Positions 24,110-56,218 of a stretch of 64,000 bases of DNA are shown here, piece after piece. The DNA is from an uncultured virus (IMG/VR IMGVR_UViG_3300035696_002359) (taxonomy: Duplodnaviria; Heunggongvirae; Uroviricota; Caudoviricetes). A program made the translations under genes and the position numbers. Below the pieces are notes generated by a model. It saw nothing but the letters and a program-made list of their open reading frames with translations. It was not told the origin of the DNA and searched no databases. Position 1 is the first letter of the stretch. The number at the start of each line of letters is the position of its first letter. The DNA is taken from IMG/VR virus record IMGVR_UViG_3300035696_002359. One strand, 5' to 3'.

Positions 24110-24110
24110 T

Positions 24111-35040: not shown

Positions 35041-35043
35041 TTC

Positions 35044-36090: not shown

Positions 36091-36100
36091 CGGCACGCAG

Positions 36101-36154
36101 TTATCGGTAATCAAATAGCGACCATTACCGATAACAACCCCGCATTACCGATAA
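36101..36154. promoter_or_regulatory. Three copies of 11-bp ATTACCGATAA (one inverted, two direct), candidate operator
   Basis: TTATCGGTAAT 36101-36111; ATTACCGATAA 36124-36134 and 36144-36154; AT-rich stretch follows at ~36178-36204. Confidence 0.5.
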
Positions 36155-36473
36155 GTCCTGATGCTCACGGGAACACGTAAGTATAAATTATAAATATAGT
36201 TACGACACGGAAAGCAAGAAAACAGTGGACACGATCCGGTAATGCCTTGGACAACGATGGTCTGAGAAATAGCAGTATTGGGCCACCGGCAAGGCAAAAA
36301 CCTCCTCTACCGCTAAAAGAGGGCCAGTATGAGGGCAGTTGAAGTAGGACTGGGACGGCGTTGGTACGGAGCGGGTACGGCGGCAATGGGGTAATCAACG
36401 GCCGACCAATACCACATTGAACGGCGATTACCACATTGATCGCCGACAACATAGGAAGAGTGAACCAGGAGCG

Positions 36474-39400
36474 ATGATGGCGACCAAGAAGGACCGGCCG
36501 AAGGTGTTGATCGAGCAGTGGCTACCGATCGCCGCTGTCGGGGCGGAATCGCTGCGAGATGCGAGCGCGGCCAAGAAACCTCCCCTTAACCGCCTGCATG
36601 TTTGGTGGGCACGGCGGCCATTGACCGTCAGCCGGGCTGCGATTCTGGCCAGCTTGCTACCAGCGTATCCGACCGACAACAACAACGGCGTGCGGCCCTG
36701 GCCGGCGAAGTTCTGCAAGCGGTTCCCCACCTTCGACAACTACAAGGCGTGGTTCTTGCGGCTCATCGGTATCAATGGCGACCCAGTGGCCGGAAGAAAA
36801 CTAATCGAATGGGCCAACAAAAACGGCAAGAAACTCCCTGGCAATCCTTACGGCTACCCTCGCGCTTTCACCGTCAGCCCGAGCGAGGAGCACCTTGAGA
36901 TTCTATACGACTTGCTCGAATGGACATGGGACACCAGGGACATCACATTCTGCGATCCAATGTCTGGTGGTGGCAGTATTCCTTTCGAAGCCCTGCGGTA
37001 CGGACTAACCGTCCATGCCAACGAGCTGAATCCTGTCGCCAGTGTGGTTCTCCGGGCCACCCTTGATTATCCAGCACGATTTGGGCCATCGCTCGCCGAC
37101 GACATTCGTAAGTATGGTCGCATCTGGTGCGAGGAGGTCCGTAGGAAAGTGGAGCCTTTCTATCCCCTTTCCGAACCGAACGAGAACATCTTCGCTTATG
37201 TGTGGGCGAGAACTGTAGCCTGTCCCGTGACGGGTAAGCAGGTTCCGCTGTCGCCCAACTGGTGGCTGCGGAAAGGCTCCGCCCCCATCGCCATAATGGT
37301 CATCGCCGATCCAAAGGCGGAGCGCTGCCGATTCGAGATCGTGCATGGCCGTATGGCGTGTATGAAGGTGAAGCCGGACCAGGGAACAATCAAACGCGGC
37401 ACCGGAATCAGTCCGTGGACGGGTGAGACTATTGACGGCGATTACATCAAGGCCGAAGCCAAGGCGGGCCGAATGGGTGAGCAACTCTACGCTGTGGGGA
37501 CAAAGAAATCAGCCGAAACGACCTTTCGTGCTCCCACTGTCGAGGACGAATGTGCTTACGAACGAGCTGTGAAGGAAATGCAGATACGTCGCCCTGCCTG
37601 GGAGGTTGCTGGGCTGGTTCCTACGGAACCACGGCGAGAGGGACGAGCTGATTGGGCTTGTGAAATCTACGGAGCGACCCAATGGTGCGACACATACACG
37701 TCCCGACAGCTTCTGTCCATGATTACGTTCGTCGAGTGTCTGCAAGCGACGATTGACCAAGCGATGAAGGAACTTGGTGGAGACCGCGCCGACGCTGTAA
37801 GAGTATACCTTTCGGTCGCGATCGATAAGGCGGCGGACTACAACTCTCGCCAGATTCGATGGGACGGCACTCGTGAAAAAATAGTCAATGCCTTTGCTCG
37901 CCACGATTTGAGTATGCGTTGGAGCTTTGCGGAGTTCGACGCGAGCCGGAATCTTGGCCCATGGGTACTGGACATGGTTGCCAATGCGTGCAAGGAGATC
38001 ACGGCATTGTTGACTCCCTTGCCAGAGTCACTATTTGGTCCCAGTGGAACGCCACCCGTCGAACGCCTGCGTTTCACCAACGGCGTGGCTCAGTCGCTAA
38101 ACAGCATCAACACGGGCACAGTCAAGTGCATTACCGTCGACCCACCATACTACGACAACGTCAACTACGCGGAGTGCTCAAACTACTTCTACGTCTGGAT
38201 GAAACGCACGCTCGGCAAGACATTTCCCCACCTGTTTGCCGCAGAGTTAGCCAATGCAGACGACGAAGCAGTGATGAACGTCGCGCGATTCAAGGACATG
38301 GGGCAGAAGGCCAAATCACTGGCCATCGCTGACTATGAAAACAAGATGCTGGCTTGTTTTCAGGAGATGTACCGCATCCTTAGCGAAGACGGTGTTCTCA
38401 CGGTCATGTTCACGCACAAGCAAGTCGAGGCATGGGATACCTTGGGTAGCAGTCTGATTCGCGCTGGTTTCCGAATCGACGCATCTTGGCCAGTTCACAC
38501 TGAAAATGATAAGGCCATCACGGTGGCAAAGAAGAACTCGGCCGTCAGCACGATACTCTTGGCCTGCCGGAAACGAGAACAGTCCACTGATCCCATTTGG
38601 TGGGATGACTTGAAATCGCGGGTCCGTGAGACGGCTAGAGCGAAGGCTGCGGAGTTTGAGACGCAGGGGATTAAGGGTGTGGACCTCTACATCAGCACTT
38701 TCGGTCCGGTGCTGTCCATCATTTCCGAGAACTGGCCGGTGCTCACCAGTGAAACCGACCCCAAGACCGGTGACCCGTTACCACTGAGACCGGGCGAGGC
38801 GCTCGACCTGGCCCGGCAGGAAGTTGTCGACTTGCGCAAGAAAGGCTTGCTACTGGGACGCTCGGTGGAATTCGACCCGGTGACTGACTGGTACTTGATG
38901 GCCTGGGATGCCTTCAAGGCCCAGCAGTTTCCGGCTGACGAGGCGCGCAAGTTAGCGTTGGCCCTGGGCCTGGATCTGGAAAAGGATCTAGTGAAGGACA
39001 AACGGCTGGTCACGAAGAAATCGGCGAGCGTCGTGCTCACCTTGCCGACTGACCGTCGCAAGAAGAATATGGTGGACCCAGATGCCACGAGCTTCCCACA
39101 TGTGATCGATGCCCTGCACACAGCTATGATGATCTACGACGAGGAGGGCTCGAATGCATGCCAGGTCTTCGTCGATCGCCAACGGTTCCCCGAGCGGTTC
39201 ATGCTCTGCGATGAAGTCGGCCTGGGCAAGACGATCGAGGCCGGTATGGCGATCCGGCAACTCGTGGTTTCTGGCGTCGTCAAGAGGGTTTTGATCTTGG
39301 TGCCCAAGAGCGTGCTGGTGCAGTGGCAGGAAGAACTGTACGAGAAGTTCGCTCTGAACATCCCTCAGTACGATGGCAACGACTTCCATGATGTCTTCGG

Positions 39401-42050
39401 CCGCCAAGTGCCAGACGCAGACAGCGACAATCCTTGGGAAGCCCACCCTATCTTTCTGGCCTCTAGCCATTTGGCAAAACGCCGCGAACGCCAAGCTCAA
39501 CTGTTTGAAGCCCAGGATTGGGATCTGGTGGTCGTGGATGAGGCACACCATGCCCGGCGCAAGGATTTTTTGAACAAGGAACAGTTTCGCCCTAACCGGT
39601 TGCTGGAGTTGCTGCTTGGCACGGAGGGCCGGCCGGGGCTGGCGAGTAAGACTCGTGGCCTGCTGTTGCTGACCGCCACACCTATGCAGTTGGACCCGGT
39701 GGAAGTTTTCGACCTGCTGAAGCTCTTGGGCATGGGAGGCCGCTGGGGCGTCGAGGGCAATTTCCTGCGATATTTCGAGGAGTTGCGGCGGCCCTTTGAA
39801 GACATTGACTGGCCGTTCATCCTTGGGATGCTCGACGACCATTTCACGACCGGCGGCCAATGGGACGAGGCTTTCTGCCGCGTGGCCGAGGGGCGCGTTG
39901 GTCCGGTGGCCTGGGATCAGATTCGCCGGCTGCCTAGCTCGCGCAACGCCGAGAGCGTCATTCGGCAGCTCGACGGCGCTGCCCAAGGAGCGCTCCGGCA
40001 ACTCGCCGGCCGGCACACGCCGCTGCGGAGACATATCTTCCGCAACACCCGTCCGTTGTTGCGAAAGTACCGTGAGCAAGGACTGCTCAAGGAGAATATC
40101 CCAGAACGCCGGCCCAAGCCGGAATGGATTCCCATGACCGACGAGGAGGACACACTGTATAGGCGGATCGAGGAGTACATCCGCGATCACTACCAGAAAT
40201 ACGAGGCGGAGCGCAGAGGTCTGGGCTTCATTATGACGGTCTACCGCCGGCGGCTGACCAGCAGTTTCTACGCGATCCAGCAGAGCCTCCAACGCCGGCT
40301 GGATTATCTGAAGGGGGCAGCCAAGGGATGGCTCACTGACGACGACCTTGACCAGGAAGACCTGGAGACCGACGTGACTGAGACGCTGCTCTTCGACGAG
40401 GACGAGGAGCGGCCACCCGAGGAAGTGCCGTCCTTATTCCTGGGCGAGGTCAACTTCGTCACGGACTTCCTGGCCGACCTGCGGGCGTTGGGGACCGACA
40501 GCAAGTTTGAGCAGCTCGCCAAGGATCTGAATGAGTTGCTGATGCGACGCGACTCCGTCATCATCTTCACGCAGTATACCGATACGATGGACTACCTCCG
40601 CGACAAACTCCGACACGTCTACGGAGCACAGGTCGCTTGCTACAGCGGCCAGGGCGGGGAACGGTGGGACGGCAAGGTATGGGTTGGCACCAGTAAGGAA
40701 AACATCAAGACGGCCTTCCGTGAACGGCAGGACATCAAGATACTCCTCTGCACCGAGTCAGCCTCCGAGGGCCTCAACCTTCAGACTTGCGGCGTACTGA
40801 TTAACTTCGACTTGCCCTGGAATCCCATGAGAGTCGAGCAACGGATCGGCCGTATCGACCGAATTGGACAGGTTTACCCCGATGTTTGGATTCGCAACTA
40901 TTTCTACGAAGGCACGGTAGAGGCCATCGTCTACCAGCGACTCGACGAGCGGATCGCATCGTTTGAGAACGTTGTGGGCCAGTTGCAGCCAATCCTCAGC
41001 CAAGTCGCTCGGGTGATCGAGGCGGCGGCGATGGCTAACGACACGCGCCGTGGGGAGTTGATCGCCAAGGAGATCGAGGAGATCAATCGCCGGGTCCAGG
41101 AGGAGGAAATCTCGGCCCTGAACGTGGATAAGTTCGTGGACGACACCGTAGAGGCTGTGGCCGAGGAACCGGCACCGGTAACGTTGGCTGAATTGGAGCG
41201 CGCCATCGTGGAGTCGGCCGCGCTGCGAGATCGCTTTGAGCCGCACCCCGAAATTGCCGGGGCTCACCTGCTGGACTGGCACGGCGCCTACCAGGCCGTG
41301 ACTTTCAACCCTGAGGTGTTTGACGAGTATCCCAACACGCTGCGACTGCTGACCTACGGCGGTGGCCTGTTAGAAGAGGTTCTCCAGACGCTGGAACCGC
41401 CTGTAGACGGCGCGACTAGCGCCGAGGTTATCCGCTGTGCCCACGCCACGCCCTGGCCGCTGGTGGGATTCTACGAAGCTGCCGACGGTCAGGCGATCCG
41501 ATCTCTGGGCGAGTTACGGATCATCCTCGATAAGGGCGCAATAGTCGAGTTGAAGGACGAGCAGCGTCAATGCCTCGTTGCTCAGTTTAACGATACCGCC
41601 GGCAAGCTTATGTCTCGGGAGACCAACGCAGCCGACTCACGGCGTAAGGCTCACATCTCATCGCTGACCGAGGAGATTCGCCAGCTCCTGACACAAGCGG
41701 CCTACATTGAGCTTGCCCAGGCTACCAACAAGGATCTGTTTGATGAGGACGACCTACCAGTGGACTTCTCCGAGCACGCCTACGAGCGGCTCAAGCGGCA
41801 CAAGTACCCATTCTCCGGCGCCTTAAAGCAGGTCGGTGATCGCCTGCCTCGGCCCCGACCCCAGGATCCATTCTTTCTGAAGATGAACGCCGCCAAGCGG
41901 GACGTACTCACCCGTCGCTTCGAGGCGATCCGCACCAAGCTCGGCGAACGGCTGCATCAGTTGATGGCGGCGAAGCAGGCCGGCGTGCCTGGTGAAGACG
42001 GCAGCATGTCATTGGGGGTTACGCCGACCATCGAGTGCTTCACGGCGTAA
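36474..42050 (+). CDS. DUF1156 adenine methyltransferase fused in frame to a SNF2-family helicase
   Basis: LHVWWARRPL, DPMSGGGSIP, VDPPYYDN; then CDEVGLGKTIEAG, VVDEAHH, LLLTATPMQ, IIFTQY, ESASEGLNLQ, DLPWNPMRVEQRIGRIDRIGQ. Confidence 0.88.
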   Translation: MMATKKDRPKVLIEQWLPIAAVGAESLRDASAAKKPPLNRLHVWWARRPLTVSRAAILASLLPAYPTDNNNGVRPWPAKFCKRFPTFDNYKAWFLRLIGINGDPVAGRKLIEWANKNGKKLPGNPYGYPRAFTVSPSEEHLEILYDLLEWTWDTRDITFCDPMSGGGSIPFEALRYGLTVHANELNPVASVVLRATLDYPARFGPSLADDIRKYGRIWCEEVRRKVEPFYPLSEPNENIFAYVWARTVACPVTGKQVPLSPNWWLRKGSAPIAIMVIADPKAERCRFEIVHGRMACMKVKPDQGTIKRGTGISPWTGETIDGDYIKAEAKAGRMGEQLYAVGTKKSAETTFRAPTVEDECAYERAVKEMQIRRPAWEVAGLVPTEPRREGRADWACEIYGATQWCDTYTSRQLLSMITFVECLQATIDQAMKELGGDRADAVRVYLSVAIDKAADYNSRQIRWDGTREKIVNAFARHDLSMRWSFAEFDASRNLGPWVLDMVANACKEITALLTPLPESLFGPSGTPPVERLRFTNGVAQSLNSINTGTVKCITVDPPYYDNVNYAECSNYFYVWMKRTLGKTFPHLFAAELANADDEAVMNVARFKDMGQKAKSLAIADYENKMLACFQEMYRILSEDGVLTVMFTHKQVEAWDTLGSSLIRAGFRIDASWPVHTENDKAITVAKKNSAVSTILLACRKREQSTDPIWWDDLKSRVRETARAKAAEFETQGIKGVDLYISTFGPVLSIISENWPVLTSETDPKTGDPLPLRPGEALDLARQEVVDLRKKGLLLGRSVEFDPVTDWYLMAWDAFKAQQFPADEARKLALALGLDLEKDLVKDKRLVTKKSASVVLTLPTDRRKKNMVDPDATSFPHVIDALHTAMMIYDEEGSNACQVFVDRQRFPERFMLCDEVGLGKTIEAGMAIRQLVVSGVVKRVLILVPKSVLVQWQEELYEKFALNIPQYDGNDFHDVFGRQVPDADSDNPWEAHPIFLASSHLAKRRERQAQLFEAQDWDLVVVDEAHHARRKDFLNKEQFRPNRLLELLLGTEGRPGLASKTRGLLLLTATPMQLDPVEVFDLLKLLGMGGRWGVEGNFLRYFEELRRPFEDIDWPFILGMLDDHFTTGGQWDEAFCRVAEGRVGPVAWDQIRRLPSSRNAESVIRQLDGAAQGALRQLAGRHTPLRRHIFRNTRPLLRKYREQGLLKENIPERRPKPEWIPMTDEEDTLYRRIEEYIRDHYQKYEAERRGLGFIMTVYRRRLTSSFYAIQQSLQRRLDYLKGAAKGWLTDDDLDQEDLETDVTETLLFDEDEERPPEEVPSLFLGEVNFVTDFLADLRALGTDSKFEQLAKDLNELLMRRDSVIIFTQYTDTMDYLRDKLRHVYGAQVACYSGQGGERWDGKVWVGTSKENIKTAFRERQDIKILLCTESASEGLNLQTCGVLINFDLPWNPMRVEQRIGRIDRIGQVYPDVWIRNYFYEGTVEAIVYQRLDERIASFENVVGQLQPILSQVARVIEAAAMANDTRRGELIAKEIEEINRRVQEEEISALNVDKFVDDTVEAVAEEPAPVTLAELERAIVESAALRDRFEPHPEIAGAHLLDWHGAYQAVTFNPEVFDEYPNTLRLLTYGGGLLEEVLQTLEPPVDGATSAEVIRCAHATPWPLVGFYEAADGQAIRSLGELRIILDKGAIVELKDEQRQCLVAQFNDTAGKLMSRETNAADSRRKAHISSLTEEIRQLLTQAAYIELAQATNKDLFDEDDLPVDFSEHAYERLKRHKYPFSGALKQVGDRLPRPRPQDPFFLKMNAAKRDVLTRRFEAIRTKLGERLHQLMAAKQAGVPGEDGSMSLGVTPTIECFTA

Positions 42051-42178: not shown

Positions 42179-42985
42179 TCAGTCGAGAGGATCGTCGATC
42201 CAAAGAAGTGTAATCGTCCTGTCATAATAATCGAGATATCGGCTGTCTTCCTTGATATCAACATCCCGTTTGTACTCAAATCCTTCGAGCCATGCGTAGG
42301 CCGGAGAGCGGACCATCTGACCGACGTCGGGCGCCTTATTGGCCAGGCGTTCCCCTGCGGCGGAGTGCTCATGAATGTCTCCAAATCTGATTTGAGGCCA
42401 GCCCGCCTTGAACGGTCGGAAGAATCGCATGTCCCAGCCTTCGCTCAATACGACAGCGACGGGCTCGTTCGTGTATTCCCAGTACTGAAAGACTGTCGCT
42501 ATCACGCTAGTCCGAAATTCTTCCGCGAGCGAATCCATCAGCTTCATGCTCGGAGGATTGCCGGAGAATCGCGGCCGAAGCAGAAACTCAGGCATGAGTA
42601 GCTCAGCTGCAAATGCGTTGGCCTCCGCTTCCTCGGACGAATCATTCCAAACGGTGAAACTCGCTTTTGAATCTGTTCTATCAATCATGGCTCCTTGATG
42701 TAAAAGCCAGTGACCGATTTCGTGCGCGATCGTAAATCGACGGCGCCCAGCGTGAGAACTTCGCACGACGCGTATCACACCACCTCGTGTTGTCGTAGCG
42801 ACCAACCGGCCTTCCGCGCAGTCAAGTCCTCCCTCCTTCACAATGAGCCGTCCGACGTGCCACGCAATCGTTTCAACTTCAATCGCGTCCGGATGTTCAA
42901 CGTGGAAACGCTCCAAGAGTTCTCTTGCCGCTCTGCGAGCGGCTTCAACTCGCACATTCAGAAGTATGCGTTTGTCACTCTTCAT
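42179..42985 (-). CDS. ImmA/IrrE-family Zn metallopeptidase
   Basis: RRRFTIAHEIGH, EAEANAFAAELLMP. Confidence 0.92.
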   Translation of the reverse strand: MKSDKRILLNVRVEAARRAARELLERFHVEHPDAIEVETIAWHVGRLIVKEGGLDCAEGRLVATTTRGGVIRVVRSSHAGRRRFTIAHEIGHWLLHQGAMIDRTDSKASFTVWNDSSEEAEANAFAAELLMPEFLLRPRFSGNPPSMKLMDSLAEEFRTSVIATVFQYWEYTNEPVAVVLSEGWDMRFFRPFKAGWPQIRFGDIHEHSAAGERLANKAPDVGQMVRSPAYAWLEGFEYKRDVDIKEDSRYLDYYDRTITLLWIDDPLD

Positions 42986-43397
42986 CGGACGAACTGCCCA
43001 AGATATCGCCGATATCCTCAAGCCACGACCGAAGTTCTTCATCCGATAGCAACGATGTATCCTTGTTTCGGCATCGCGCTAGGGCAGCCTGCTGATACTG
43101 AGGACCATATGAACCATCTTGAAGTTGCGCAAATATCGACAACATCGCGTCTCGTGACATCGTTGCCAATTGAGGGAGAAGGCCTGGTTGGACACGTATT
43201 CTATCCTGTTCGCTCCGAGCAGCGGCGCGTAGTTGTTCGCTGTAACTGGTTTGGACGATCTTCTTAATGCGACTGAAGAACTGGGCCGTATCGAGTCCTT
43301 GTGACCGCAGTTCCGCGATCGTCTCCGCTTTTGTCTGCTCCTCATTCGATGCGAGAAAGTCCTCAAGATCCTCAAGCCGCTTGCCTTTGTAATTCAT
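42975..43397 (-). CDS. Hypothetical helical protein (candidate anti-sigma or peptidase substrate)
   Basis: Overlaps both the sigma-like and IrrE genes; function inferred from position only. Confidence 0.6.
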   Translation of the reverse strand: MNYKGKRLEDLEDFLASNEEQTKAETIAELRSQGLDTAQFFSRIKKIVQTSYSEQLRAAARSEQDRIRVQPGLLPQLATMSRDAMLSIFAQLQDGSYGPQYQQAALARCRNKDTSLLSDEELRSWLEDIGDILGSSSDEE

Positions 43398-44670: not shown

Positions 44671-45030
44671 ATGTCTCAGCAAGACTTCATTGGTGAATTG
44701 AAGGCCCTCGGCCACGGCGTTCAGATCAAGGACGGCAACCTGATCACGTTTCCGTACGTCGTTCCACTCGGGCGATTCCAAGGCCAGGCGATTACGCTCG
44801 GTTTCGCAGTGCCTGGTGACTATCCGCTATCATGCCCCTCCGGCCCCCACATAACGCCGCGACTGCTGCCGATGAACGACGGTGGTGAACACCCACACGG
44901 AAAGATTCTTGGCAGCGACCAGTTCGGTGGTGATTGGCAGTATTGGAGCCGCCCCTTCTTGGAGTGGAGCAAGACGAAGAGGAATGCGAAAGAATACATG
45001 GCGTACATTCGTCTCCTGTTCGATCAATGA
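44671..45030 (+). CDS. Prokaryotic E2/UBC-like protein
   Basis: YVVPLG..ITLGFAVPGDYPLSCP..WQYWSRP; sits between the Ubl and E1 genes. Confidence 0.7.
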   Translation: MSQQDFIGELKALGHGVQIKDGNLITFPYVVPLGRFQGQAITLGFAVPGDYPLSCPSGPHITPRLLPMNDGGEHPHGKILGSDQFGGDWQYWSRPFLEWSKTKRNAKEYMAYIRLLFDQ

Positions 45031-46493
45031 GATACTCCGTCGCACTCACAACCGATGTTCAGCAACAAGCATGTGGGCACCTGATTCGACGAGATCGGCA
45101 GGAAGACCTCTGCTTCGGGCTTTGGTATCCGAGTCGCGGACGGTCTCGGTTCACGGCTCTGCTCTCGGGCCTGATCGTGCCGGAGCGGGGTGAACGAAGT
45201 GTCCACGGCAATGCAGTGTTCACCCCGGAGTATTTCGATCGCGCGATGGGACTCGCGCGGGAACACGGAGCGGGACTCGCCTTTCTACACAGCCATCTGG
45301 GCCCAGGATGGCAGGGGATGAGCAGCGACGATATTGTCGCTGAGGAAAGCCATGCAGCATCGACGTACGGCGCGACCGGGTTGCCCTTGGTCGGCATGAC
45401 GGTCGGAACTGACCGTGCCTGGAGCGCACGGATGTGGGAGCGGACGGGGCGGCGGCAATACGCCCGTCGATGGTGTGAGTCGGTGCGGGTTGCCGGCGAA
45501 TACCTTTCCGTGACTTACGATACCGATCTCGCACCTGTACCACACATTGGTTCCGAATTGGACCGGACGGTGTCGGCGTGGGGCGAGGCAAAGCAGGCTG
45601 ACATTGGTCGGTTGAAGGTGGGTGTAATCGGAGCGGGCAGCGTGGGGTGCATCGTTGCCGAGTCGCTCGCCCGTATGGGCTTCGGCTCAGTGCTCCTCTT
45701 GGACTTCGACGACGTCGAACGAGTCAATATGGATCGGTTGCTGCACGCGACACGATGGGATATCGGAAAGGCCAAGGTCAATGTTCTCGCTCGTGCACTG
45801 CGTAAAAGTGCGACTGCGAGCGGCTTCTCCGTCGAACCGATGGAGTATAGTGTTGCGGAGGAGGCAGGATACCGCGCAGCCCTCGACTGCGACATCCTTT
45901 TCAGTTGCGTTGATCGGCCGCTTGCCCGCCACGTTCTGAACTTCATCGCGTACGCGCACCTGATTCCGGTGGTTGACGGCGGCATTGCGATCAGAACTCG
46001 GACCGACGGCACGATGCGACACTGCGACATGCGCAGCCATATTGCAGCTCCTTCACGGCGGTGCCTGGAGTGCCTTGAACAGTATAACGCGGGGCTCGTC
46101 TCGGCAGAGCGGGACGGATTTCTTGACGATCCTAAGTACATCGAAGGACTGCCAGAGGACTCGGACATCCGGCGCCGCGAGAACGTGTTCGGCTTTAGCG
46201 CGATGACGGCCTCCCTCGAACTCATGCACATGTTGGCAATGGTTATTGTGCCTTGCGACATTGGGAATCACGGATCGCAGATTTATCACTTCAAAACGGG
46301 TGATCTAGACCGGGAACATGAGTCCGCGTGCGACACGACGTGTATCTTTCCGAGTCTTACGGCTCGTGGGGACGCAGCTAACGTGACGCTCACCGGCCCT
46401 CATCGTGCTGCCGAGCGGGCACGAGCCTCGCGTCGAGGCTGGCATGCCAAGATGCGATGGATGGGTCGAATGATCTTCATAAAGGCGCGATAA
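45027..46493 (+). CDS. JAB-like peptidase fused to ThiF/E1-like adenylyltransferase
   Basis: QEDLCF and HSHLGPGWQGMSSDD (JAMM-like); VIGAGSVG, DFDDVERVNMDR, KAKV, CVDRPLAR, CLEC. Confidence 0.88.
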   Translation: MRYSVALTTDVQQQACGHLIRRDRQEDLCFGLWYPSRGRSRFTALLSGLIVPERGERSVHGNAVFTPEYFDRAMGLAREHGAGLAFLHSHLGPGWQGMSSDDIVAEESHAASTYGATGLPLVGMTVGTDRAWSARMWERTGRRQYARRWCESVRVAGEYLSVTYDTDLAPVPHIGSELDRTVSAWGEAKQADIGRLKVGVIGAGSVGCIVAESLARMGFGSVLLLDFDDVERVNMDRLLHATRWDIGKAKVNVLARALRKSATASGFSVEPMEYSVAEEAGYRAALDCDILFSCVDRPLARHVLNFIAYAHLIPVVDGGIAIRTRTDGTMRHCDMRSHIAAPSRRCLECLEQYNAGLVSAERDGFLDDPKYIEGLPEDSDIRRRENVFGFSAMTASLELMHMLAMVIVPCDIGNHGSQIYHFKTGDLDREHESACDTTCIFPSLTARGDAANVTLTGPHRAAERARASRRGWHAKMRWMGRMIFIKAR

Positions 46494-47082
46494 ACCTCAC
46501 GTTCATGCGCTTTAGGTCGTTCACCTGCCACGTCTAACAGATGCCTGGGCATTCTCGCCGAAATGATCGGCGACAATCTTGTTCCCATTCGGAAAGCGTA
46601 AGATAAGCCTGCATAACTCGGTGCTAATGCTCATCCACCTTGGCTGGACGAGCACCAGCAGGCCAAGCAATTGTTCTTACCGGATCGGTTCTGGTTGCCT
46701 TGCTTTGTTGGTTCCATTGCCGCTCTAGCTATCTGTCCTTCGTTCGGAACGATGGTTTCCCATCGCGCGTCGGGTGCGCCGGGCCGACGCACGCATGGGC
46801 TCGTTCGCGCAGCGAAGACGAGTTGCCCTTCTGCTGGTGGGGTCTGGTCGTCTCTCGGCGCGTTTCATTCGCGCCCCATTTTCACGGGTTCTCGGGACTT
46901 TGATTGTGAGACGGCAATTCAGGACCGCCGCTCCCCGAAAACTGTTGGAATCACAGCGCCTGAAAGAAGATGTGGCATCAATCGAAGGGTTGTTGACACG
47001 CGGCGGCAATTCGTTAGGCTGGAGTAAGCGATAATTGAATCGCAAGCAGGATTGCGTGGTACGATGAAAGGACACATCGCAT

Positions 47083-48432
47083 ATGACGATGAATTGGACG
47101 AATCTGTCTGTCTTGAAGTTTGCCGGAGCTTCCGACCCTGTCGAATTAGTTCAGCAGGCAGCTCGCACGATGGCGCTAAATGCTGCCGAAAATGGCTGGT
47201 CTGGGCCGCCGTTTGACCCTTTTGAACTTGCCTCCATTTTGAATTATCGCGTAGTGCCTTCTCAAGGGGTTCGGGATGCAAGGCTCACCCCGGAAGGCAC
47301 GGGTTATCGCGTGGACTTCAATCCAAACCAATCGCTTAGACGGATCCGGTTTTCGATTGCTCATGAGTTGGCTCACACACTGTTTCCGGACTGCCGCGCA
47401 CAAGTTCGTCATCGCCTTCGGTCGGATGCAATGCGGGAAGATGAGTGGCAGCTTGAAATGCTCTGTAACATTGCGGCGGGTGAGCTTCTCATGCCGGCAG
47501 GCAACTTGGCGGTCGAGTCAATGGGAAGGCTTACCATCGACAATTTGCTTGAGTTCCAGAATAGATTCGGCGTTTCAATGGAAGCAATTCTCCTGCGGGT
47601 TGTTCGGCTCGAGCGTCGGCAATGTGCCGTATTTGTCGCGTCATGCTCTGAGGAGGGATGGGGCCTTGACTATGCGTTGGAAACAAAAGGGGCAGGGTTT
47701 GGACTCGGAAGCGGCTTACTGCTTCCGAAGAATACTCGTATTGCCAATTGTCGTGCCATTGGCTACACGGCGAAAGGTGAGGAAACATGGGTTGAGGATC
47801 AAGCGATTCATGTCGAGAGTGTTGCCATTCCCGGTTACTCAGGCCACAAACAGCCACGAGTTGCAGGAATTGTCTACCGGAAGGGAGACAGGGGGCAAAC
47901 AACTGCACGCATCACCTTTGTGATTGGTGACGCTACGAAGCCACACGGAGACGGCCACAAGGTCATTGCCCACATTGTAAACGATGCAGCGACGCGGTGG
48001 GGAGGTGCAGGCTTCGCAAAGGCCATTCGAAGGTGTTGGCCGGCCGCATATGATGAGTTTCACCATTGGGCTGAAACCTATCGTCGACAGTTGCGCCTCG
48101 GGCGCACACACGTTTCGCGTGTCGAGGATGCGATCACCATTTTTAGCATGATAGCTCAGCACGGCTACGGAGAGTCATCCCTTCCGCGAATTCGCTACCA
48201 GCACCTAAAAACGTGTCTCTCAGAACTTCGGGAGTTTGCGAGATCTAACGATGCGTCTGTCCATATACCTCGGATCGGCTGTGGGGAAGCAGGTGGGAAC
48301 TGGGAGATCGTTCAGGACTTGATTCTTGAGTGTCTTTCTGACCACGGTGTGTCGGTAACGGTGTACGACCTAAAGCCTCCATCCAAAGCGACATCCCGGC
48401 CAGCGCAACAATCCCTTTTTGCACACCACTGA
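47083..48432 (+). CDS. ImmA/IrrE metallopeptidase fused to a C-terminal macrodomain (ALC1/TARG1/SCO6735-like)
   Basis: RIRFSIAHELAH, EMLCNIAAGELLMP; then GDATKP, IAHIVND, WGGAGFAKAI, IAQHG, VHIPRIGCGEAGGNW, VTVYD. Confidence 0.88.
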   Translation: MTMNWTNLSVLKFAGASDPVELVQQAARTMALNAAENGWSGPPFDPFELASILNYRVVPSQGVRDARLTPEGTGYRVDFNPNQSLRRIRFSIAHELAHTLFPDCRAQVRHRLRSDAMREDEWQLEMLCNIAAGELLMPAGNLAVESMGRLTIDNLLEFQNRFGVSMEAILLRVVRLERRQCAVFVASCSEEGWGLDYALETKGAGFGLGSGLLLPKNTRIANCRAIGYTAKGEETWVEDQAIHVESVAIPGYSGHKQPRVAGIVYRKGDRGQTTARITFVIGDATKPHGDGHKVIAHIVNDAATRWGGAGFAKAIRRCWPAAYDEFHHWAETYRRQLRLGRTHVSRVEDAITIFSMIAQHGYGESSLPRIRYQHLKTCLSELREFARSNDASVHIPRIGCGEAGGNWEIVQDLILECLSDHGVSVTVYDLKPPSKATSRPAQQSLFAHH

Positions 48433-48459
48433 TCGATCGTGGGCGAAGTGAGGCAGCCA

Positions 48460-50070
48460 ATGGCTCGAATCATAGTCCTTCTTTCTGGATCGGTTGCATC
48501 GGGAAAAAGTACGCTCGGAAATCAGCTCGTTAGTGATTTTGGTGCAATACTCATCAAGACTTGGCAGCTTCTTACCGAAATCGATCCCAATGTAAGTCGC
48601 GATAGGGAGTCGCTCCAGAACCTTGGGGAGAAGCTGGATCAAGAGACGGGGGGGCGGTGGGTTTCAGAGGCTCTTGGCAAGAGCGTATCGCGGTTAGCCG
48701 ATGACGCGATTATCGCTGTCGATTCTGTACGCATTCTTGCGCAAATTGATTGCGTCCGGAAGGGCTTCGGATCGAAGGTGGTCCACGTTCACTTGGAAGC
48801 CACGGAGGAGGACCGTAGCAAGCGCTACGCAGGAAGAAAGCGAAAGGATATCAAGGAATTAGAGACCTACGCGGAGGTTCTAAAAAATGCGACCGAAAGA
48901 GACGTTCCGTCGCTCCGTGAGAAAGCAGACATAGTTATCGACACAACTCGATCTGACGAGAGAGACGTATTGATACGGGCGGCGAGTCATCTTGGCCTCT
49001 ACGGACGCGGTTGCCACAAGGTTGTCGATGTACTTGTAGGTGGGCAATATGGCAGTGAAGGAAAGGGCCAAGTGGCCGCGTACTTGTCAAAAGAGTACGA
49101 CGTGCTCGTTCGCGTAGGCGGGCCAAACGCTGGCCACAAGGTTTACAAAAGTGATGGTGAGGACACCTTTCATATTTTGCCTTCCGGAAGTCGGGTTAGC
49201 ACCGCAGAGCTTATGCTGGGACCAGGAGCCGTGATTGACGTTGAGACGTTACTAAAGGAAATCAACGCTCTCCAAATCGAGCCAGAGCGTCTTACCGTCG
49301 ATCCCTATGCCATCATCATTACCGACGAGGACAAGGCGGTGGAGACACGGCTTGTCGAAGAAATCGGCTCTACTGGCCAGGGCGTTGGCGCTGCGACTTC
49401 ACGGAGGATAATGCAAAGGGACGGAAGTGTACGCCTCGCGAAAGACACGAAGGAACTAGAACCGTATGTTCGTCCGGCGTGGATTAGGCTCGAAGAGAAG
49501 ATGCGAGACCCACGAGTTCGTGTTTTCTTAGAGGGAACTCAAGGCACCGCGCTTAGCCTATATCACGGGCCGTACCCACATGTCACTTCACGGGACACGA
49601 CGGTTTCAGGCTGTCTTGCTGAAGCCGGAATCTCACCGGGACATGTTCGTCGCACGATCATGGTCACTCGCACCTTGCCGATACGTGTTGAGAGCCCAAA
49701 AGGCAAAGGAAAGACTTCGGGGCCGATGAAGCAGGAGCTGACATATAGGCAAGTCGCTGATCGATGCCATCTCGCCGAAGTCGATATTCGCAAGACTGAG
49801 CTAACCTCAACCACGCACAAACCTCGGCGGCTCGGTGAATTTGACTGGGAGCTCTTCAGGAAGTCGGTCTTTTTGAATTCCCCAACTGACGTCGCTTTGA
49901 CGTTTGTCGATTATATCGACGCAGTTAACAGGAACGCCAGGCGTTTTGATCAGTTAACTCCAGAAACGTTGCGGTTTATTGAGGAAATCGAGCAAGTCGC
50001 AAACGCGCCTGTTTCGCTTATTTCTACGAGATTTCACTACCGCAGCATCATTGACCGACGCAACTGGTAA
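48460..50070 (+). CDS. NMP-kinase-like P-loop domain fused to an adenylosuccinate-synthetase-family (PurZ0-like) domain
   Basis: GSVASGKST, RESLQNLG, DSVR; then GGQYGSEGKG, GGPNAGH, LPSG, GSTGQGVG, EGTQG, HGPYPHVTSRD, TTHKPRRLG, LTFVDY. Confidence 0.88.
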   Translation: MARIIVLLSGSVASGKSTLGNQLVSDFGAILIKTWQLLTEIDPNVSRDRESLQNLGEKLDQETGGRWVSEALGKSVSRLADDAIIAVDSVRILAQIDCVRKGFGSKVVHVHLEATEEDRSKRYAGRKRKDIKELETYAEVLKNATERDVPSLREKADIVIDTTRSDERDVLIRAASHLGLYGRGCHKVVDVLVGGQYGSEGKGQVAAYLSKEYDVLVRVGGPNAGHKVYKSDGEDTFHILPSGSRVSTAELMLGPGAVIDVETLLKEINALQIEPERLTVDPYAIIITDEDKAVETRLVEEIGSTGQGVGAATSRRIMQRDGSVRLAKDTKELEPYVRPAWIRLEEKMRDPRVRVFLEGTQGTALSLYHGPYPHVTSRDTTVSGCLAEAGISPGHVRRTIMVTRTLPIRVESPKGKGKTSGPMKQELTYRQVADRCHLAEVDIRKTELTSTTHKPRRLGEFDWELFRKSVFLNSPTDVALTFVDYIDAVNRNARRFDQLTPETLRFIEEIEQVANAPVSLISTRFHYRSIIDRRNW

Positions 50071-50074
50071 TTGC

Positions 50075-50719
50075 ATGAAAGGGCTCGCCTTGCCATTTAC
50101 GCTCTTACGTTTTGCAGCGACTCGACCCTACCTATACCACTTGACGAGTCGCCGTAACTTCGAGTGGCTGCTTCGTGGCCGAGTCATGCACAGCACGGCG
50201 GAACTCCTCAGGGCGTCGGGCAATGAGCAGTGGCTCACTCGAAAGCGGCCCGAAACGGTGACGGTTACAGTGGATGACAGGCTGATCGACCTTCGCGACC
50301 AGCAGCCTCTCTACTCCGGAAAAACGCTTTTGGAAAATGGTTGGACATTTGAGCGTTTGGTTCAGCGACTAAACGAACGAGTGTTCTTTTGGCCGGGTGT
50401 AATAGAAGGTCCTGTTTCGTCCGGGCGACGTCACTATGAGCGGTACGCGGGAGAATCGCCCGTGATTATGCGAGTCAAGACAGAGGATCTCCTTAGCGCG
50501 AACGCATGTGCCACCCCGCTTTTCTGTAAGTACAACTCCGGTTCCCCAAGAACAACGCAGGGAAGGGGTAGTCCGAGAGGCGACAACACTTTCATCGAGT
50601 GCCATCGTGCAGCCTATTCAGCAAGCAACGTTGTCGAAGTGACGTTTCTGCATTCCGTTAAGCTGCCGCAAGCCATCGAGTCTTCCGACAAGCCCAGTGG
50701 ACCGTGGAAAAGCCATTGA
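50075..50719 (+). CDS. DarT-like / DUF7002-like putative ADP-ribosyltransferase-fold protein
   Basis: YLYHLTSRRN, LRDQQPL, LNERVFFW, YNSG, VVEVT; starts 4 bp after the previous stop. Confidence 0.55.
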   Translation: MKGLALPFTLLRFAATRPYLYHLTSRRNFEWLLRGRVMHSTAELLRASGNEQWLTRKRPETVTVTVDDRLIDLRDQQPLYSGKTLLENGWTFERLVQRLNERVFFWPGVIEGPVSSGRRHYERYAGESPVIMRVKTEDLLSANACATPLFCKYNSGSPRTTQGRGSPRGDNTFIECHRAAYSASNVVEVTFLHSVKLPQAIESSDKPSGPWKSH

Positions 50720-51209
50720 GCCGGCGGGACGCCTTTCGCCGAAGTATCCATGAACTCGCAGGAACTCAATATCACTCTGGACGGTACGAAGATAGGGCGG
50801 CAAGGATGCTTGGCCGGACTGACCATTAGGCCCGCTGGTGTTTCATCAAGTGATACCTATTCTCGGACATCCCAATACGTGACCGTCTTCTCAGAGCGAA
50901 GTGCCGTCGATCCCAATCGTGGCGCGCGTCGGTCATATTGACGAATGGCACTAGCTTGCCTTTGGGAAGGGACGTGGAGCCAAGTGGAAGCGAATGGGGT
51001 AATCGCCAAGAAATGGGGTAATGAGTGCGGTTCCATTATCGCCACGTCATCATGCTACTCCTCCCTGATCCTATTATCGAAGATTGCTGCCAAGACTTTA
51101 GAACTCAAAGGTTCGGCGGCCTAAGAAAAAAGCCCCGTTTTTTTCCGGGGCTCCCCACAATTTCGTGTTTTTCGGCTCAAAAATTGGGCCGAGGACACTA
51201 CTATATGGT

Positions 51210-52994
51210 ATGGACTCTTCAGTATATAGTAGTAACGCAACCAACAAATCTGCACGGAAAAGAAAGAAAAATCCGGTTTCCCAACTGGCACTCGATTCTT
51301 TCGAGGCTTTCAAACCGTTCATCAACATCTTCGATCCTGGGACCAAGGACTGGGCTGGCACCGTCGTCCACACCATCACCAGGGAAGATTGGCGGCTTTT
51401 CCGCCGCTACAAAGACGGCGAACGGAACCTGACCTATCTCGATGGTCGGGAGTTCAAGCCAGGACGGGACATCGTCCAGAATATCTACGGCCCGCGCCAC
51501 GTTCATCGCCATATCGACGGGGGCGAAGTCAGTTATTACACCTCGGGCAAGAATGGGCTGGCCTTGGCCTATCTCGACATCGACGCCCATCATCCGTGGC
51601 AGACCGACGAATATCGAGCCAAAGCCGTCCTTGAAGAGTTGTTCCCCTTCGGCTACTTTCGGTGTTCTCGAAGAGGTCAGAACGGCTACCTGAAGATTCG
51701 GTACAACACACCAGAAGAATTCAACGACTTGGCGGATCGGTTGGAGAAGACGCTGGCTCGACTGTTTCTGAGCCGCGGCATCCTGTGCGACATCGAGATC
51801 AAGGGGACCATCACCACCGGCCAGAAATCGGGCAGTCTTGCAAAACCTCCGTTCACAACCAATTATCCGTGCCACAGACGGGATGAGACCGACAGTTGGA
51901 ACTATCCACAATTGGAGAAGTTCAAGGCTTGCCCCGTCGTCAATCTTCGTCGAATCGAGTGCATCATTGGACAGATCGAGATCGACGAAGAGAAGGCGGC
52001 TGCCTTCGCCAAAGTGAAGAAGCGGTTGGACGAGGAACACAAAGTCAGGACGGCGAAGCCTGCTCCGTCGCCCCCATCACCGACCATTCTAAAGCCCGTG
52101 GTGAAGAACCAGCCCAAACCATCTTTGACACAGTGTTCTCTTCGGCTCAAGATGGACCTGTCACCCCAGGGTTCGGACGACGCATTTCGTCGAAACCTTG
52201 AAGATATTCGTCTGTTTGCGCGGGCTTTTTTCTCCGAACACCGCCGTTTTCCGACGACCGAAGAGGCTTTGGAGTGGCTGAGGGACAACAAACGGTACTC
52301 CGGCGAATGGGAAGACAACGTCAATCGTCGCGCCAAACGGGTCGAGCAAATCCTTCAGTTCACCGAGCGGACGTTTGATCCTGACCTGTTGGCCAAGGGG
52401 GAAAATCCATCGGTATCGCTGGAATTGGGTCGGTTCAGTTGGTGGGTTCGGCAGAAGTGTGGCTCGACGATGATAAGGCAGGTGGCGGACATCAGTCGAT
52501 TTGACGCCGAAACCATGCAGGCGCCGACCACCACAATCTCGGTTCCAGCCAAATTCGTCGAGACCTTCCTGACTGTGGCTCATTTCTGCCTTTCAACCGA
52601 CCCCTTGTCCAATCGCGCGGTCCCAACGAATCGGATCAAGAAGATTTGGGGAATGGTCAAAGATGGAGCAGCTTGGAATCAGAAATACTTCCAAGTTGTT
52701 CGGGATCGGTTGAATCGGATGGGGATCATTTCGATCTTCGATAGGCAACATCATGCTGGAAAGGCATGGAGATGGTCAGTTGGAAACTCCTTCCCTGAAC
52801 ACAGTTGGAAAGAAGACCAGCGAAAGCTCAAGGAAGAGCTTCGACTGCCAGCAGAACTGGCCAAGAGCTTCGAGGAGATCGTGGCCGTTGATAGTGATAA
52901 TGATAACAACAACTTACATAACACCCTATACCACGACGAGGCTCAGATTTCAGCCGTTTCCGAGCCAGACGAGCAGGTCCGACCTCCTCCATAA
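51210..52994 (+). CDS. Large hypothetical protein, candidate AEP/primase-like Rep
   Basis: AYLDIDAH (DxD), SRRGQNGY (motif II-like but without the usual His), Pro-rich linker, helical C-terminus. Confidence 0.45.
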   Translation: MDSSVYSSNATNKSARKRKKNPVSQLALDSFEAFKPFINIFDPGTKDWAGTVVHTITREDWRLFRRYKDGERNLTYLDGREFKPGRDIVQNIYGPRHVHRHIDGGEVSYYTSGKNGLALAYLDIDAHHPWQTDEYRAKAVLEELFPFGYFRCSRRGQNGYLKIRYNTPEEFNDLADRLEKTLARLFLSRGILCDIEIKGTITTGQKSGSLAKPPFTTNYPCHRRDETDSWNYPQLEKFKACPVVNLRRIECIIGQIEIDEEKAAAFAKVKKRLDEEHKVRTAKPAPSPPSPTILKPVVKNQPKPSLTQCSLRLKMDLSPQGSDDAFRRNLEDIRLFARAFFSEHRRFPTTEEALEWLRDNKRYSGEWEDNVNRRAKRVEQILQFTERTFDPDLLAKGENPSVSLELGRFSWWVRQKCGSTMIRQVADISRFDAETMQAPTTTISVPAKFVETFLTVAHFCLSTDPLSNRAVPTNRIKKIWGMVKDGAAWNQKYFQVVRDRLNRMGIISIFDRQHHAGKAWRWSVGNSFPEHSWKEDQRKLKEELRLPAELAKSFEEIVAVDSDNDNNNLHNTLYHDEAQISAVSEPDEQVRPPP

Positions 52995-55001: not shown

Positions 55002-55199
55002 ATGGCTGCCGACGTACTGATCGAAAATCACGGCTCCGTGGCAGTGTTCACGCCGATGACGCCTGACGCTCACCAATGGGTCGAAGAGTATGTCCACGTC
55101 GAACCGTGGCAACGAATGGGATGTTCAATCGCCTGTGAGCCTCGTTGTTTGGGACCACTCATCGAAGGAATGCAGCAAGACGGTTTGGTCGTCGAGTAG
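55002..55199 (+). CDS. Small hypothetical protein
   Basis: GAGGAG RBS; IENHGSV..EPR. Confidence 0.6.
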   Translation: MAADVLIENHGSVAVFTPMTPDAHQWVEEYVHVEPWQRMGCSIACEPRCLGPLIEGMQQDGLVVE

Positions 55200-55270
55200 G
55201 TGCCGCATCGTTCGGACCACACCGCATACCGTCGAATGACAAACTAACCAACCGATTCAGGAGAGTAATC

Positions 55271-56218
55271 GTGGCAACTCAAGAAGAAATCCGGCAGTCC
55301 ATCACCGACAGCATTGCGTCAGCCCTCAAGAGCGATTCCGTCTTGCCCTGGAGGCGCCCGTGGGGAATTAGTCCCAACAGCGGTTTCCCGACCAACGTAG
55401 TGTCGAAAAGGCGGTACAGCGGCGTGAACGTGCTTCTGCTTCGCATGGCCGCAATGACTCACGGGTTCACCAGCAAGTATTGGGCAACATTCAATCAGTG
55501 GCGCGAACTCGGCGGCAAGGTCATGCGTCGGCCCGAGAACGTCAAGCCAGGACATTGGGGGCAGACCATCGTTTTCTTCACTCGGATCACCAAGACGGAA
55601 GTGGACCCAGTCACCGGCCAGGAAGAGGAAACGTCCTTCCCGCTCCTCAAGACGTATTGTGTGTTCAACGTCGATCAGGTCGAAGGACCGTTCGATCATT
55701 TGCGAGTGAAGGAGGAGTTGCTCGCGGTCAATGCGGACTTCGTGGACTACTATCCCGCTGAGGAGACGATCAAAGCCACCGCCGCAGACATTCGCTTCGG
55801 CGGGGACCACGCCTTCTACAATCGCCGGGATGACAGCATCCTCTGCCCGCCGAAGCATCGGTTTGAGAAGGAAAGCCAATACTACGGCACGATTTTCCAC
55901 GAACTGGCGCACTGGACCGGCCACGAAAGCCGCCTCAATCGAGCCGACAAACTTGCCCGTTTTGGCGACAAGTCGTATGCGGAAGAGGAATTGGTGGCCG
56001 AAATGGGATCGTGTTTCACCCTCGCCACCCTGGGTGTTCCCCAGACGGATGATATGTCAAACCACAAGGCTTACGTCGCCAACTGGCTCGAAGCTTTGAA
56101 CAAAGACAGCCGCTTCATTTTTCGTGCTGCCAGTGCCGCCAGCAAAGCCGCCGATTACGTCCTTTCGTTCGCGCCGCAGTTCCAGCATGAGCCAGACCTT
56201 GCAGAAGTCCCCTTCTGA
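55271..56218 (+). CDS. ardC: ArdC-family ssDNA-binding anti-restriction protein with zincin-like domain
   Basis: PWRRPW, RRYSGVNVLLL, WATFNQW, VFNVDQ, YYGTIFHELAHWTGH, YAEEELVAEMGS, YVANWL. Confidence 0.92.
   Translation: MATQEEIRQSITDSIASALKSDSVLPWRRPWGISPNSGFPTNVVSKRRYSGVNVLLLRMAAMTHGFTSKYWATFNQWRELGGKVMRRPENVKPGHWGQTIVFFTRITKTEVDPVTGQEEETSFPLLKTYCVFNVDQVEGPFDHLRVKEELLAVNADFVDYYPAEETIKATAADIRFGGDHAFYNRRDDSILCPPKHRFEKESQYYGTIFHELAHWTGHESRLNRADKLARFGDKSYAEEELVAEMGSCFTLATLGVPQTDDMSNHKAYVANWLEALNKDSRFIFRAASAASKAADYVLSFAPQFQHEPDLAEVPF

Follow-up and report, generated by a model that had tools for sequence, protein, structure and literature searches.

In the literature on PurZ consulted here, the synthesis of 2-aminoadenine (Z) is treated only as a phage trick that shields DNA from host nucleases. 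The phage Z pathway runs from PurZ through the host's PurB and GMP kinase, with MazZ supplying the deoxyguanosine monophosphate (dGMP), as given in the available part of a preprint (10.1101/2025.10.22.683976), and the partners named for PurZ0 in the accessible text of PMC12884076 are DutZ and DmtZ. A DarT-like ADP-ribosyltransferase (ART) family called 'Lmac_3114' has been described with an adenylosuccinate-synthetase domain in 60% of its neighbourhoods (PMC12522546, BMC Genomics 2025); its operon in Pseudomonas aeruginosa holds AAA, adenylosuccinate synthetase and NUDIX domains, and in the accessible portion of that paper the ART and purine synthesis are proposed to be linked by regulation, through the availability of nicotinamide adenine dinucleotide (NAD). 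The subject here is a cassette of three genes, about 3.6 kb in all, in a 64,000-nucleotide stretch of DNA from an uncultured virus assigned to the Caudoviricetes (IMG/VR record IMGVR_UViG_3300035696_002359; the whole stretch is called the window). The middle gene joins a nucleoside monophosphate (NMP) kinase-like domain to a PurA/PurZ-like domain with serine at the place of the catalytic aspartate of PurA. A PurZ enzyme clade is here met in kinase-fused form, common in bacterial and archaeal genomes and tied to a DarT-like writer, the PurZ-type/ART pair being joined by a macrodomain ADP-ribose eraser in most loci.

The open reading frame (ORF) of the fusion (Table 1) is open from 48439 or 48460 to 50070 on the + strand, and the ATG at 48460 is taken as its start because homologues begin there at MAR or MAK in an alignment of 24 family members, the same alignment from which the invariance counts for the fusion are drawn; GAGG lies a few bases 5' of this ATG. 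Pfam places Adenylsucc_synt from residue 198 (E 5e-52, 177.5 bits vs a cut-off of 27) and AAA_33 on residues 13-151 (E 2.5e-7), and the top NCBIfam model is the short archaeal-type PurA NF003295, spanning 3-334 of its 337 positions, with the PurZ model NF038379 in second place. An earlier note on this DNA had read the P-loop as GGQYGSEGKG with the serine codon at 49054-49056, and both are borne out, AGT being read there in the DNA; the motifs GSVASGKST, RESLQNLG, DSVR and LTFVDY that it listed are all found in the translation as well. Ser199 is not an error or chance, because it is invariant in 24 of 24 family members (as G-S-E-G-K-G) together with the other active-site motifs, namely GGPNAGH, EGTQGT, TSRD, the aspartate loop T-T...R-R and D484 of LTFVDY. 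Judged from these conserved motifs the pattern is that of a working enzyme, which argues for the fusion being live, and a reading of it as catalytically dead was rejected on the same ground. A protein search with the fusion returned at least 120 clusters, nearly all of about 535 amino acids (aa), at 54-93% identity and 79-100% query coverage.

The place of the domain within the PurA family was sought in trees built from representatives of a full-library search with an archaeal PurA, from fusion-family members, from four phage PurZ and four PurZ0 (named records) and from the housekeeping PurAs of carrier genomes, with 13 representatives of unrecognised P-loop left out. In a quick tree of 157 rows one clade, with a Shimodaira-Hasegawa-like approximate likelihood ratio test (SH-aLRT) value of 96, separates the Ser-type proteins from all Asp-type PurA, and takes in the fusions, PurZ, PurZ0, all but one of the 24 unfused short Ser proteins and a few variants with Gly or Leu. 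IQ-TREE on 110 rows, where the bootstrap was not fully converged (correlation 0.944), gives the fusion family 100/98 (ultrafast bootstrap, UFBoot, then SH-aLRT), the fusion family with the four phage PurZ and some short Ser proteins 98/96, and a wider Ser-type clade that includes PurZ0 93/94. This wider clade contains one row labelled Asp-type; outside it lie all long PurA and all Asp-type short PurA but one, and PurZ0 forms a clade of its own (100/97) in the other half. By its placement the fusion domain is therefore a PurZ-clade enzyme, closer to PurZ than to PurZ0. The earlier note had called it PurZ0-like, which stands as to the base-motif Asp, retained as in PurZ0 and PurA, and falls as to ancestry, the tree putting the domain with phage PurZ; in the phylogeny with PurA, PurZ and PurZ0 that the note had proposed, the fusion does not cluster with ordinary PurA, and its picture of a non-housekeeping, kinase-fused enzyme is upheld by the tree and by the kinase fold. 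Ten of ten related carrier genomes also encode a canonical Asp-type PurA, which is of the long type in eight (443-589 bits) and in the two Nitrosopumilus-type archaea a 332-333-aa PurA with GDEGKG, and the fusion is for this reason not the housekeeping enzyme.

Sequence matches of the domain in the PDB are to P. horikoshii PurA (3.5e-51), to the phage PurZ of phiVC8 and S-2L (about 1e-33) and to PurZ0 7VF6 (1e-28), while PHROGs assigns it to the '2-aminooxy adenylosuccinate synthetase' family (6.6e-65). A protein search with a 300-aa piece, directed at unfused relatives, matched shortened versions of the fusion family. Among unfused short PurA homologues (about 330-370 aa) from metagenomes, 24 of the representatives kept have Ser and six have Gly at the catalytic Asp, and since many such homologues carry it the Ser switch is far commoner than the characterised phage PurZ and PurZ0. 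A separate observation is P0243, a 570-aa protein in which an Asp-type archaeal PurA stands behind an unrelated 235-aa N-terminal part.

PurZ0 uses GTP, and PurZ uses ATP or dATP. The base-contact motif is T-F-V-D-Y in the fusion (T-F-[VA]-D-Y across the aligned family members), [ST]-M-x-D-Q in PurZ0, T-K-x-D in PurA and N-F-x-[NQ]-Y in PurZ, and the Asp so retained suggests a guanine-nucleotide donor for the fusion, as far as sequence can tell. Use of GTP by PurZ0 is implied in the available part of the preprint 10.1101/2025.10.22.683976, and the accessible text of PMC12884076 words the donor preference of PurZ and PurZ0 the opposite way; the same text has the catalytic Asp 99% conserved in the PurA group. 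Ser in its place is the mark of the PurZ enzymes, which act on dGMP, and on this ground the fusion likely takes a guanine nucleotide as substrate.

The AlphaFold2 (AF2) model of the kinase domain (residues 1-185; predicted local distance difference test, pLDDT, 95.4) finds its best VIA-align match in 3lw7, a Sulfolobus adenylate-kinase-related protein crystallised with AMP (Z-score 19.2, root mean square deviation 2.6 Å, 165 residues aligned), about three Z-score units ahead of the next match, the runners-up being UMP kinase 1ukz (16.0), phosphomevalonate kinase (15.9) and adenylate kinase (14.8). In Foldseek shikimate and adenylate kinases come best (E about 1e-8), which is the small-molecule P-loop kinase class, and the near folds also include shikimate, gluconate and phosphomevalonate kinases. 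Pfam offers generic families only (AAA_33, AAA_18, Cytidylate_kin2), and PADLOC matches the fusion weakly and on the kinase part only (VakA, 2.6e-7). Across 46 aligned sequences GxxxxGK[ST] and residues G15, K16, D60 and E146 are invariant, with R91, R122 and R126 kept in at least 90%. On the strength of the model the domain likely acts as an NMP kinase.

Downstream of the fusion lies the ART gene, and when its AF2 model (pLDDT 94.7) was compared by VIA-align with 48,161 representative chains the top four were all DarT (8baq 9.6, 7omu 9.4, 7omv 9.0, 7yk3 8.2), followed by CopC, OspC3, Tpt1/KptA (Z-scores 6.0-6.1) and classical ART toxins, the remainder of the list being almost entirely ARTs and related NAD-using enzymes. 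Invariant in 43 sequences are H22, R74, D75, F104, W106, Y124, N154, G156, R168 and E188. Of the H-Y-E-type motifs these cover H22, F104/W106 and E188, the middle motif being FFW instead of Y-x-x, a replacement that the accessible part of PMC12522546 notes also for its family. The model makes this gene the likely writer, or toxin, of the cassette.

The upstream gene has a peptidase at about residues 70-180, a conserved middle and a C-terminal macrodomain at about 275-432; the HExxH of the peptidase is intact, with H94 and H98 invariant in 30 of 30 sequences. PADLOC finds in it capP (6e-19) and DarG (3e-10), and the NCBIfam DarG model NF048014 reaches 35.4 bits vs a cut-off of 250 (7e-9), on the macrodomain part only. 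In the PDB the macrodomain matches BT1257 (2afc/2fg1, 2e-32) and, third-best, SCO6735 (5e3b, 8e-29), and the peptidase matches IrrE (3dte, 1e-4) and the CapP structures. M78 proteases of the CapP/ImmA/IrrE type react to signals of DNA damage. To go by the title of PMC9411070, DNA ADP-ribosylation linked to thymidine is cleaved by SCO6735. The gene is likely a sensor combined with an ADP-ribose eraser, as predicted from its domains, and with a DarT-like writer and a macrodomain eraser the trio therefore resembles a DarTG pair that has a PurZ-type enzyme between its members.

Linkage of the three genes was assessed in a neighbourhood sample of 81 loci, made up of the window and 80 genome loci, these being the best (identity 46-82%) of at least 578 confirmed, 578 out of 600 pattern matches, in species-representative genomes. 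A first ORF clustering, which used crude calls (longest ORF, greedy choice), found only two recurrent neighbours of the fusion, an upstream gene of about 460 aa and a downstream gene of about 223 aa, and presence was then recounted by tblastn. By this count the ART gene is present in 80 of the 81 loci, the contig of the exception stopping 2 nt after the fusion, and the M78-macrodomain gene in 73, with one other locus cut at that end. Neighbouring cassette genes either overlap at their ends or are separated by a few bases; 27 nt precede the fusion in the window, and there the ATG of the ART gene comes 4 nt past its stop codon. This operon context, a linked M78-macrodomain gene and a linked DarT-like ART gene, had been left out of the earlier note. 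Carriers of the cassette are found among Planctomycetota, Verrucomicrobiota, Acidobacteriota, Actinomycetota, Chloroflexota, Alphaproteobacteria, Bacteroidota, Gemmatimonadota, Myxococcota and others, and among the archaea in Nitrosopumilus, Cenarchaeum, Thermoplasmata and a metagenome-assembled genome (MAG) of the Nitrososphaerota, and an identity of about 50% between bacteria and archaea, together with unrelated flanks, argues for horizontal transfer. In one Bryobacterales MAG (L014:8001-10274) the kinase, PurZ-like and DarT-like domains stand in a single frame of 757 aa; the three may truly be fused, or the stop codon may have been misassembled, and coming from a single assembly the frame is weak evidence.

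Some loci vary on this arrangement. An archaeal MAG (Ca. Gagatemarchaeum, L034:8001-13375) has two convergent, tail-to-tail copies of the fusion, one with the ART gene and the other with the M78-macrodomain gene. Six Alphaproteobacteria loci (L058, L060, L062, L066, L068, L079) have a fourth gene, which runs over the stop codon of the ART gene and encodes about 385 aa with a weak M48/M78-like peptidase signature, and in six other loci a protein of about 243 aa adjoins the ART gene, downstream and co-directional in four of them. A JAB/ThiF gene lying upstream in the window was considered as a cassette member and rejected, its cluster being common to only three of the 81 loci. A promoter and terminator scan of 46400-51300 returned no more sites than shuffled sequence does.

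Further purine and nucleotide enzymes accompany the cassette in a minority of loci. A PurB-family lyase adjoins it in six of the 81 (three Dehalococcoidia and three Actinomycetota), one such copy passing the TIGR00928 cut-off and another that of NF006764, and all five genomes tested encode another PurB as well, which makes the adjoining gene a second copy. Five loci have a MazG-like pyrophosphohydrolase by tblastn (four by clustering), three a deoxynucleoside kinase and four a dCTP-deaminase-like protein of the dUTPase superfamily. By analogy these partners point to a real purine-conversion pathway, echoing that of the Z phages, and a deoxy form of the substrate is suggested only, by the deoxynucleoside kinase, MazG-like and polymerase contexts. 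The earlier note had seen no Z partners, and this is right for the 64-kb window, which contains no MazZ, DatZ or DpoZ, though related loci do carry MazG-like and PurB-like genes.

The note had also described the enzyme as non-phage, which does not strictly hold, as nine viral loci in IMG/VR carry the kinase fusion (eight contigs, two of the copies being near-identical), four of them also with the ART gene and two with the M78-macrodomain gene. In four others (L115, L116, L121, L123) the fusion lies in a replication module with DnaB, primase and a family-A DNA polymerase (UDG-PolA), and no ART or macrodomain gene was detected within 6-kb flanks. At three or more points of the tree the phage copies branch from within the clade of cellular fusions. 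By analogy these four are candidate Z-genome phages with a built-in kinase, and a search of PurZ papers by term found no mention of phages of this type. As a side observation, in 19 of 80 IMG/VR loci an unfused Ser-type PurA homologue has its own PurB-like lyase within about 1-3 kb (by tblastn), for example in L141, L142, L152 and L191.

Taken together, the interpretation we prefer, although its being right or wrong seems evenly poised, is that the fusion is a bifunctional accessory enzyme in a mobile operon, which makes 2-aminoadenine-type nucleotides and is coupled to reversible ADP-ribosylation in conflict or defence. The PurZ-like domain would use GTP to activate a guanine (deoxy)nucleotide at its 6-oxo group and would add aspartate, PurB of the host or of the cassette would release fumarate to leave a 2-aminoadenine nucleotide, and the kinase domain would phosphorylate the resulting Z monophosphate. 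Joined to this chemistry would be a reversible ADP-ribosylation whose target is probably DNA, the whole acting against phages or in the manner of a toxin-antitoxin system, and the M78 domain would control the macrodomain eraser. Were the chemistry to be as supposed, cells or mobile elements would make Z-type nucleotides and link them to ADP-ribosylation of nucleic acid, which would be a new branch of nucleotide-based immunity and would offer an origin for phage PurZ that can be tested; as the cassette is compact, direct tests in laboratory strains are practical.

Several observations weigh against this interpretation. Seven loci with adequate flanks have no M78-macrodomain gene, and most cassettes, that of the window included, are without a PurB, MazG or polymerase of their own. 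The fusion scores below the NCBIfam cut-off for PurZ (NF038379, 198.8 vs 300 bits) and below that for archaeal PurA (NF003295, 281.9 vs 368 bits). The C-terminal guanine-contact motif [ST]-G-P of PurA, PurZ and PurZ0 is S-T-R-F in the fusion, and the Lys of the PurA T-K-x-D is Phe, and by these replacements its use of the donor may differ. For the ART, Foldseek has DarT in its top seven, but weakly (best E 2.9e-3, TM-score about 0.4), and so the DarT likeness rests on the VIA-align Z-scores of 8-10 and the motifs. The ART is without a model in PADLOC 2.0.0, which matches the fusion weakly, and the cassette is on that account not a listed defence system. Related loci have the type I restriction subunits HsdR (seven of 81) and HsdS (four), integrases (eight) and helicases (eight) as neighbours, all of these being raw counts without a background rate. 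The substrate, phosphate donor, kinase specificity and ART target, finally, are all things that we infer.

Other explanations draw on much of the same evidence. It is unlikely, though conceivable, that the ART and the macrodomain act on the fusion enzyme or some other protein and not on DNA, switching the kinase/PurZ-like enzyme on and off, in which case the output would be a change in the purine pool only, through a loss of G nucleotides or the accumulation of a toxic analogue. The obligate link of fusion and ART in 80 of 81 loci would suit such a switch, as would the one natural triple fusion (the Bryobacterales frame, if real) and the grouping of the macrodomain with the TARG1/BT1257/SCO6735 type. 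Macrodomains of that type also remove protein-linked ADP-ribose. The accessible part of PMC12522546, too, proposes that the link between ART and purine synthesis is regulatory, yet in structure the ART comes nearest to the DarT enzymes, which modify DNA, and not to protein ARTs, and there was no sign in the analysis of contact between the fusion and ART proteins, a predicted complex of the two (score 0.00) being no answer and evidence neither way. That all three proteins handle nucleotides or NAD allows the cassette also to be seen as the maker of a small-molecule nucleotide signal or poison, such as an ADP-ribosylated or succinylated purine nucleotide, with the ART writing on the product of the enzyme and the macrodomain degrading it. 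The phosphate-modifying Tpt1/KptA ARTs do come next after DarT, CopC and OspC3 in the structural list, and PHROGs labels the nearest phage family of the macrodomain a phosphatase; but DarT matches about three Z-score units above Tpt1, and across the 81 loci the trio has no conserved receptor or effector gene for a neighbour, and this account too is to be thought unlikely.

More improbable is that the fusion serves the mobile element itself, providing Z nucleotides for partial Z-substitution of element or prophage DNA and so evading restriction, while the ART/macrodomain pair is a separate addiction module travelling along. The same fusion does occur in phage replication modules beside a family-A polymerase, and the window has the integrases, D5-type primase and anti-restriction ArdC of a mobile element, but a polymerase or an enzyme that removes dATP is missing from the surroundings of the cassette in the window and in most cellular loci, and the ART linkage and the overlapping gene ends are hard to square with hitch-hiking. 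Scarcely credible is an ordinary or back-up adenylosuccinate synthetase, converting IMP to AMP and fused to a kinase by chance. Pfam and all source annotations say adenylosuccinate synthetase, and the aspartate loop and GTP-type Asp are kept; against this the catalytic Asp is replaced by Ser in 24 of 24 members, every PurA equivalog cut-off is missed (TIGR00184, 190.7 vs 395.55; NF002223, 159.4 vs 402, besides the archaeal model), the domain falls outside Asp-type PurA in the tree, canonical PurA is separately present in ten of ten carriers and the spread is patchy and mobile, and the housekeeping reading was rejected as largely refuted. A further reading, quite speculative and distinctly unlikely, is a cell-encoded 'mark and strike' immunity. 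Phage attack would raise dGMP, for instance by breakdown of host DNA, the PurZ-type/kinase fusion would convert it to dZ nucleotides by a path that PurB and Ndk complete, and the replicating DNA of the invader would incorporate Z. The DarT-like transferase would then ADP-ribosylate Z or its thymine partner in single-stranded DNA and stop replication, with the M78-controlled macrodomain protecting or resetting host DNA. Such a use of the Z base, were it real, would be the first by cells, and would make a weapon of what serves phages as armour.

The cassette of the window sits in a defence island on a mobile element (Table 1). An Hma-type system, which holds a DUF7680 protein and a SoFic-like Fic protein besides HmaC and an HmaB-HmaA fusion, is followed by a CapP-like peptidase adjoined by two small ORFs and by the JAB/E1-like ThiF protein; the stretch from the peptidase through the ThiF protein may be a separate ubiquitin-like or CBASS-type (cyclic oligonucleotide-based antiphage signalling system) regulatory module. 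Methylases are also present. From the GajA-like ATPase, the IS66-family transposase, the three tyrosine recombinases in a row, the D5-type primase and ArdC the whole is taken as an integrative, probably conjugative, element. Directly 3' of the cassette is an ORF of 609 aa without a match in Pfam, NCBIfam, PADLOC or PHROGs.

Table 1. Positions in the window of the cassette genes, their parts and other features
Feature	Position	Strand	Evidence
GajA-like ATPase, 374 aa (models about 570-640 positions)	108-1235	-	
IS66-family transposase	2172-4856		
Three tyrosine recombinases	5658-9963		
D5-type primase	23937-25319		
Hma-type system, whole	31566-42050		
HmaC, 1012 aa	31566-34604		PADLOC 1e-114
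HmaB methylase and HmaA SNF2-helicase fusion, 1877 aa, single ORF	36417-42050		
CapP-like M78 peptidase	42179-43042	-	PADLOC capP 9e-51
JAB/E1-like ThiF protein, 519 aa, N-terminal extension	44934-46493		E1-E2 models down to 4e-16
Gene 1, M78/IrrE-type peptidase and macrodomain	47083..48432	+	Pfam Peptidase_M78 5.5e-11
Gene 2, NMP-kinase-like and Ser-type PurA/PurZ-like fusion, 536 aa	48460..50070	+	family clade support 100/98
Kinase domain, residues 1-185, Walker A GSVASGKST	48460..49014	+	AF2 model, fold matches
PurZ-type (Ser-type) adenylosuccinate-synthetase-like domain, residues 186-536	49015..50070	+	PF00709 5e-52
AGT codon, Ser199, where PurA has catalytic Asp	49054..49056	+	read in DNA
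Gene 3, DUF7002 DarT-like ADP-ribosyltransferase, 214 aa	50075..50719	+	Pfam DUF7002 2.9e-24
ORF of 609 aa	51165-52994		
ArdC	55145-56218		

Literature searches on DUF7002 by name, on a PurA-like protein with macrodomain and ADP-ribosyltransferase, and on adenylosuccinate with a macrodomain defence system found nothing. Among the matches listed, nothing relevant was seen for adenylosuccinate synthetase with anti-phage and none tied diaminopurine or aminoadenine to DarT, a macrodomain or an ART, and an adenylosuccinate-synthetase term was in none of the matches listed for the broad defence-island literature. The Lmac_3114 family and the DUF7002 family have in common the motifs Hxx, FFW and xxE and a likeness to DarT, going by the accessible part of PMC12522546, and the ART of the cassette is very probably of the Lmac_3114 family, identified as such by motifs and not by sequence comparison. 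In that accessible part the account of Lmac_3114 goes without the Ser switch, the kinship with PurZ, the kinase fold and the M78-macrodomain partner, and equally without the PurB and MazG extras, the archaeal hosts and the versions in phage replication modules.

Set beside the known systems, the fusion is like the phage PurZ of phiVC8 (6FM1/6TNH) and S-2L (7ODX) in its short PurA-type fold with Ser at the Asp13 position, in TSRD, in a G-x-SG-P insertion and in an aspartate loop of the form T-V/T-T...RR, the two being sisters in the tree (98/96), and its viral copies lie beside a family-A polymerase as PurZ lies beside DpoZ. In contrast to the fusion, PurZ has GSTGKG for GSEGKG in the P-loop and Asn, or Gln, in its four sequences where T-F-V-D-Y keeps Asp, and it is found with MazZ, DatZ and DpoZ, whereas the fusion has a kinase attached, falls below the NF038379 cut-off, is mostly chromosomal and is found with ART and macrodomain genes. 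With PurZ0 of Gordonia phage Archimedes (7VF6) the fusion has nearly the same P-loop (GGQ[YF]GSE[AG]KG) and shares the base-motif Asp, although PurZ0 belongs to the other half of the Ser-type clade. DarTG is approached in the DarT-like ART (Z-scores 8.2-9.6), with its invariant His, aromatic motif and Glu, and in a macrodomain of the same operon, but the cassette has three genes and not two, with a PurZ-type enzyme between eraser and writer, the macrodomain is fused to M78 and closer to BT1257 and SCO6735 than to DarG, and the ART is in a separate Pfam family, DUF7002. The N-terminal domain of the upstream gene is like CapP, ImmA and IrrE in its capP match and intact HExxH, and differs in the macrodomain attached and in that no helix-turn-helix repressor partner is conserved alongside. 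No described defence or toxin-antitoxin system was found to match the cassette, the neighbourhood note in PMC12522546 being the sole prior mention found, and overall the cassette is a new combination of known parts.

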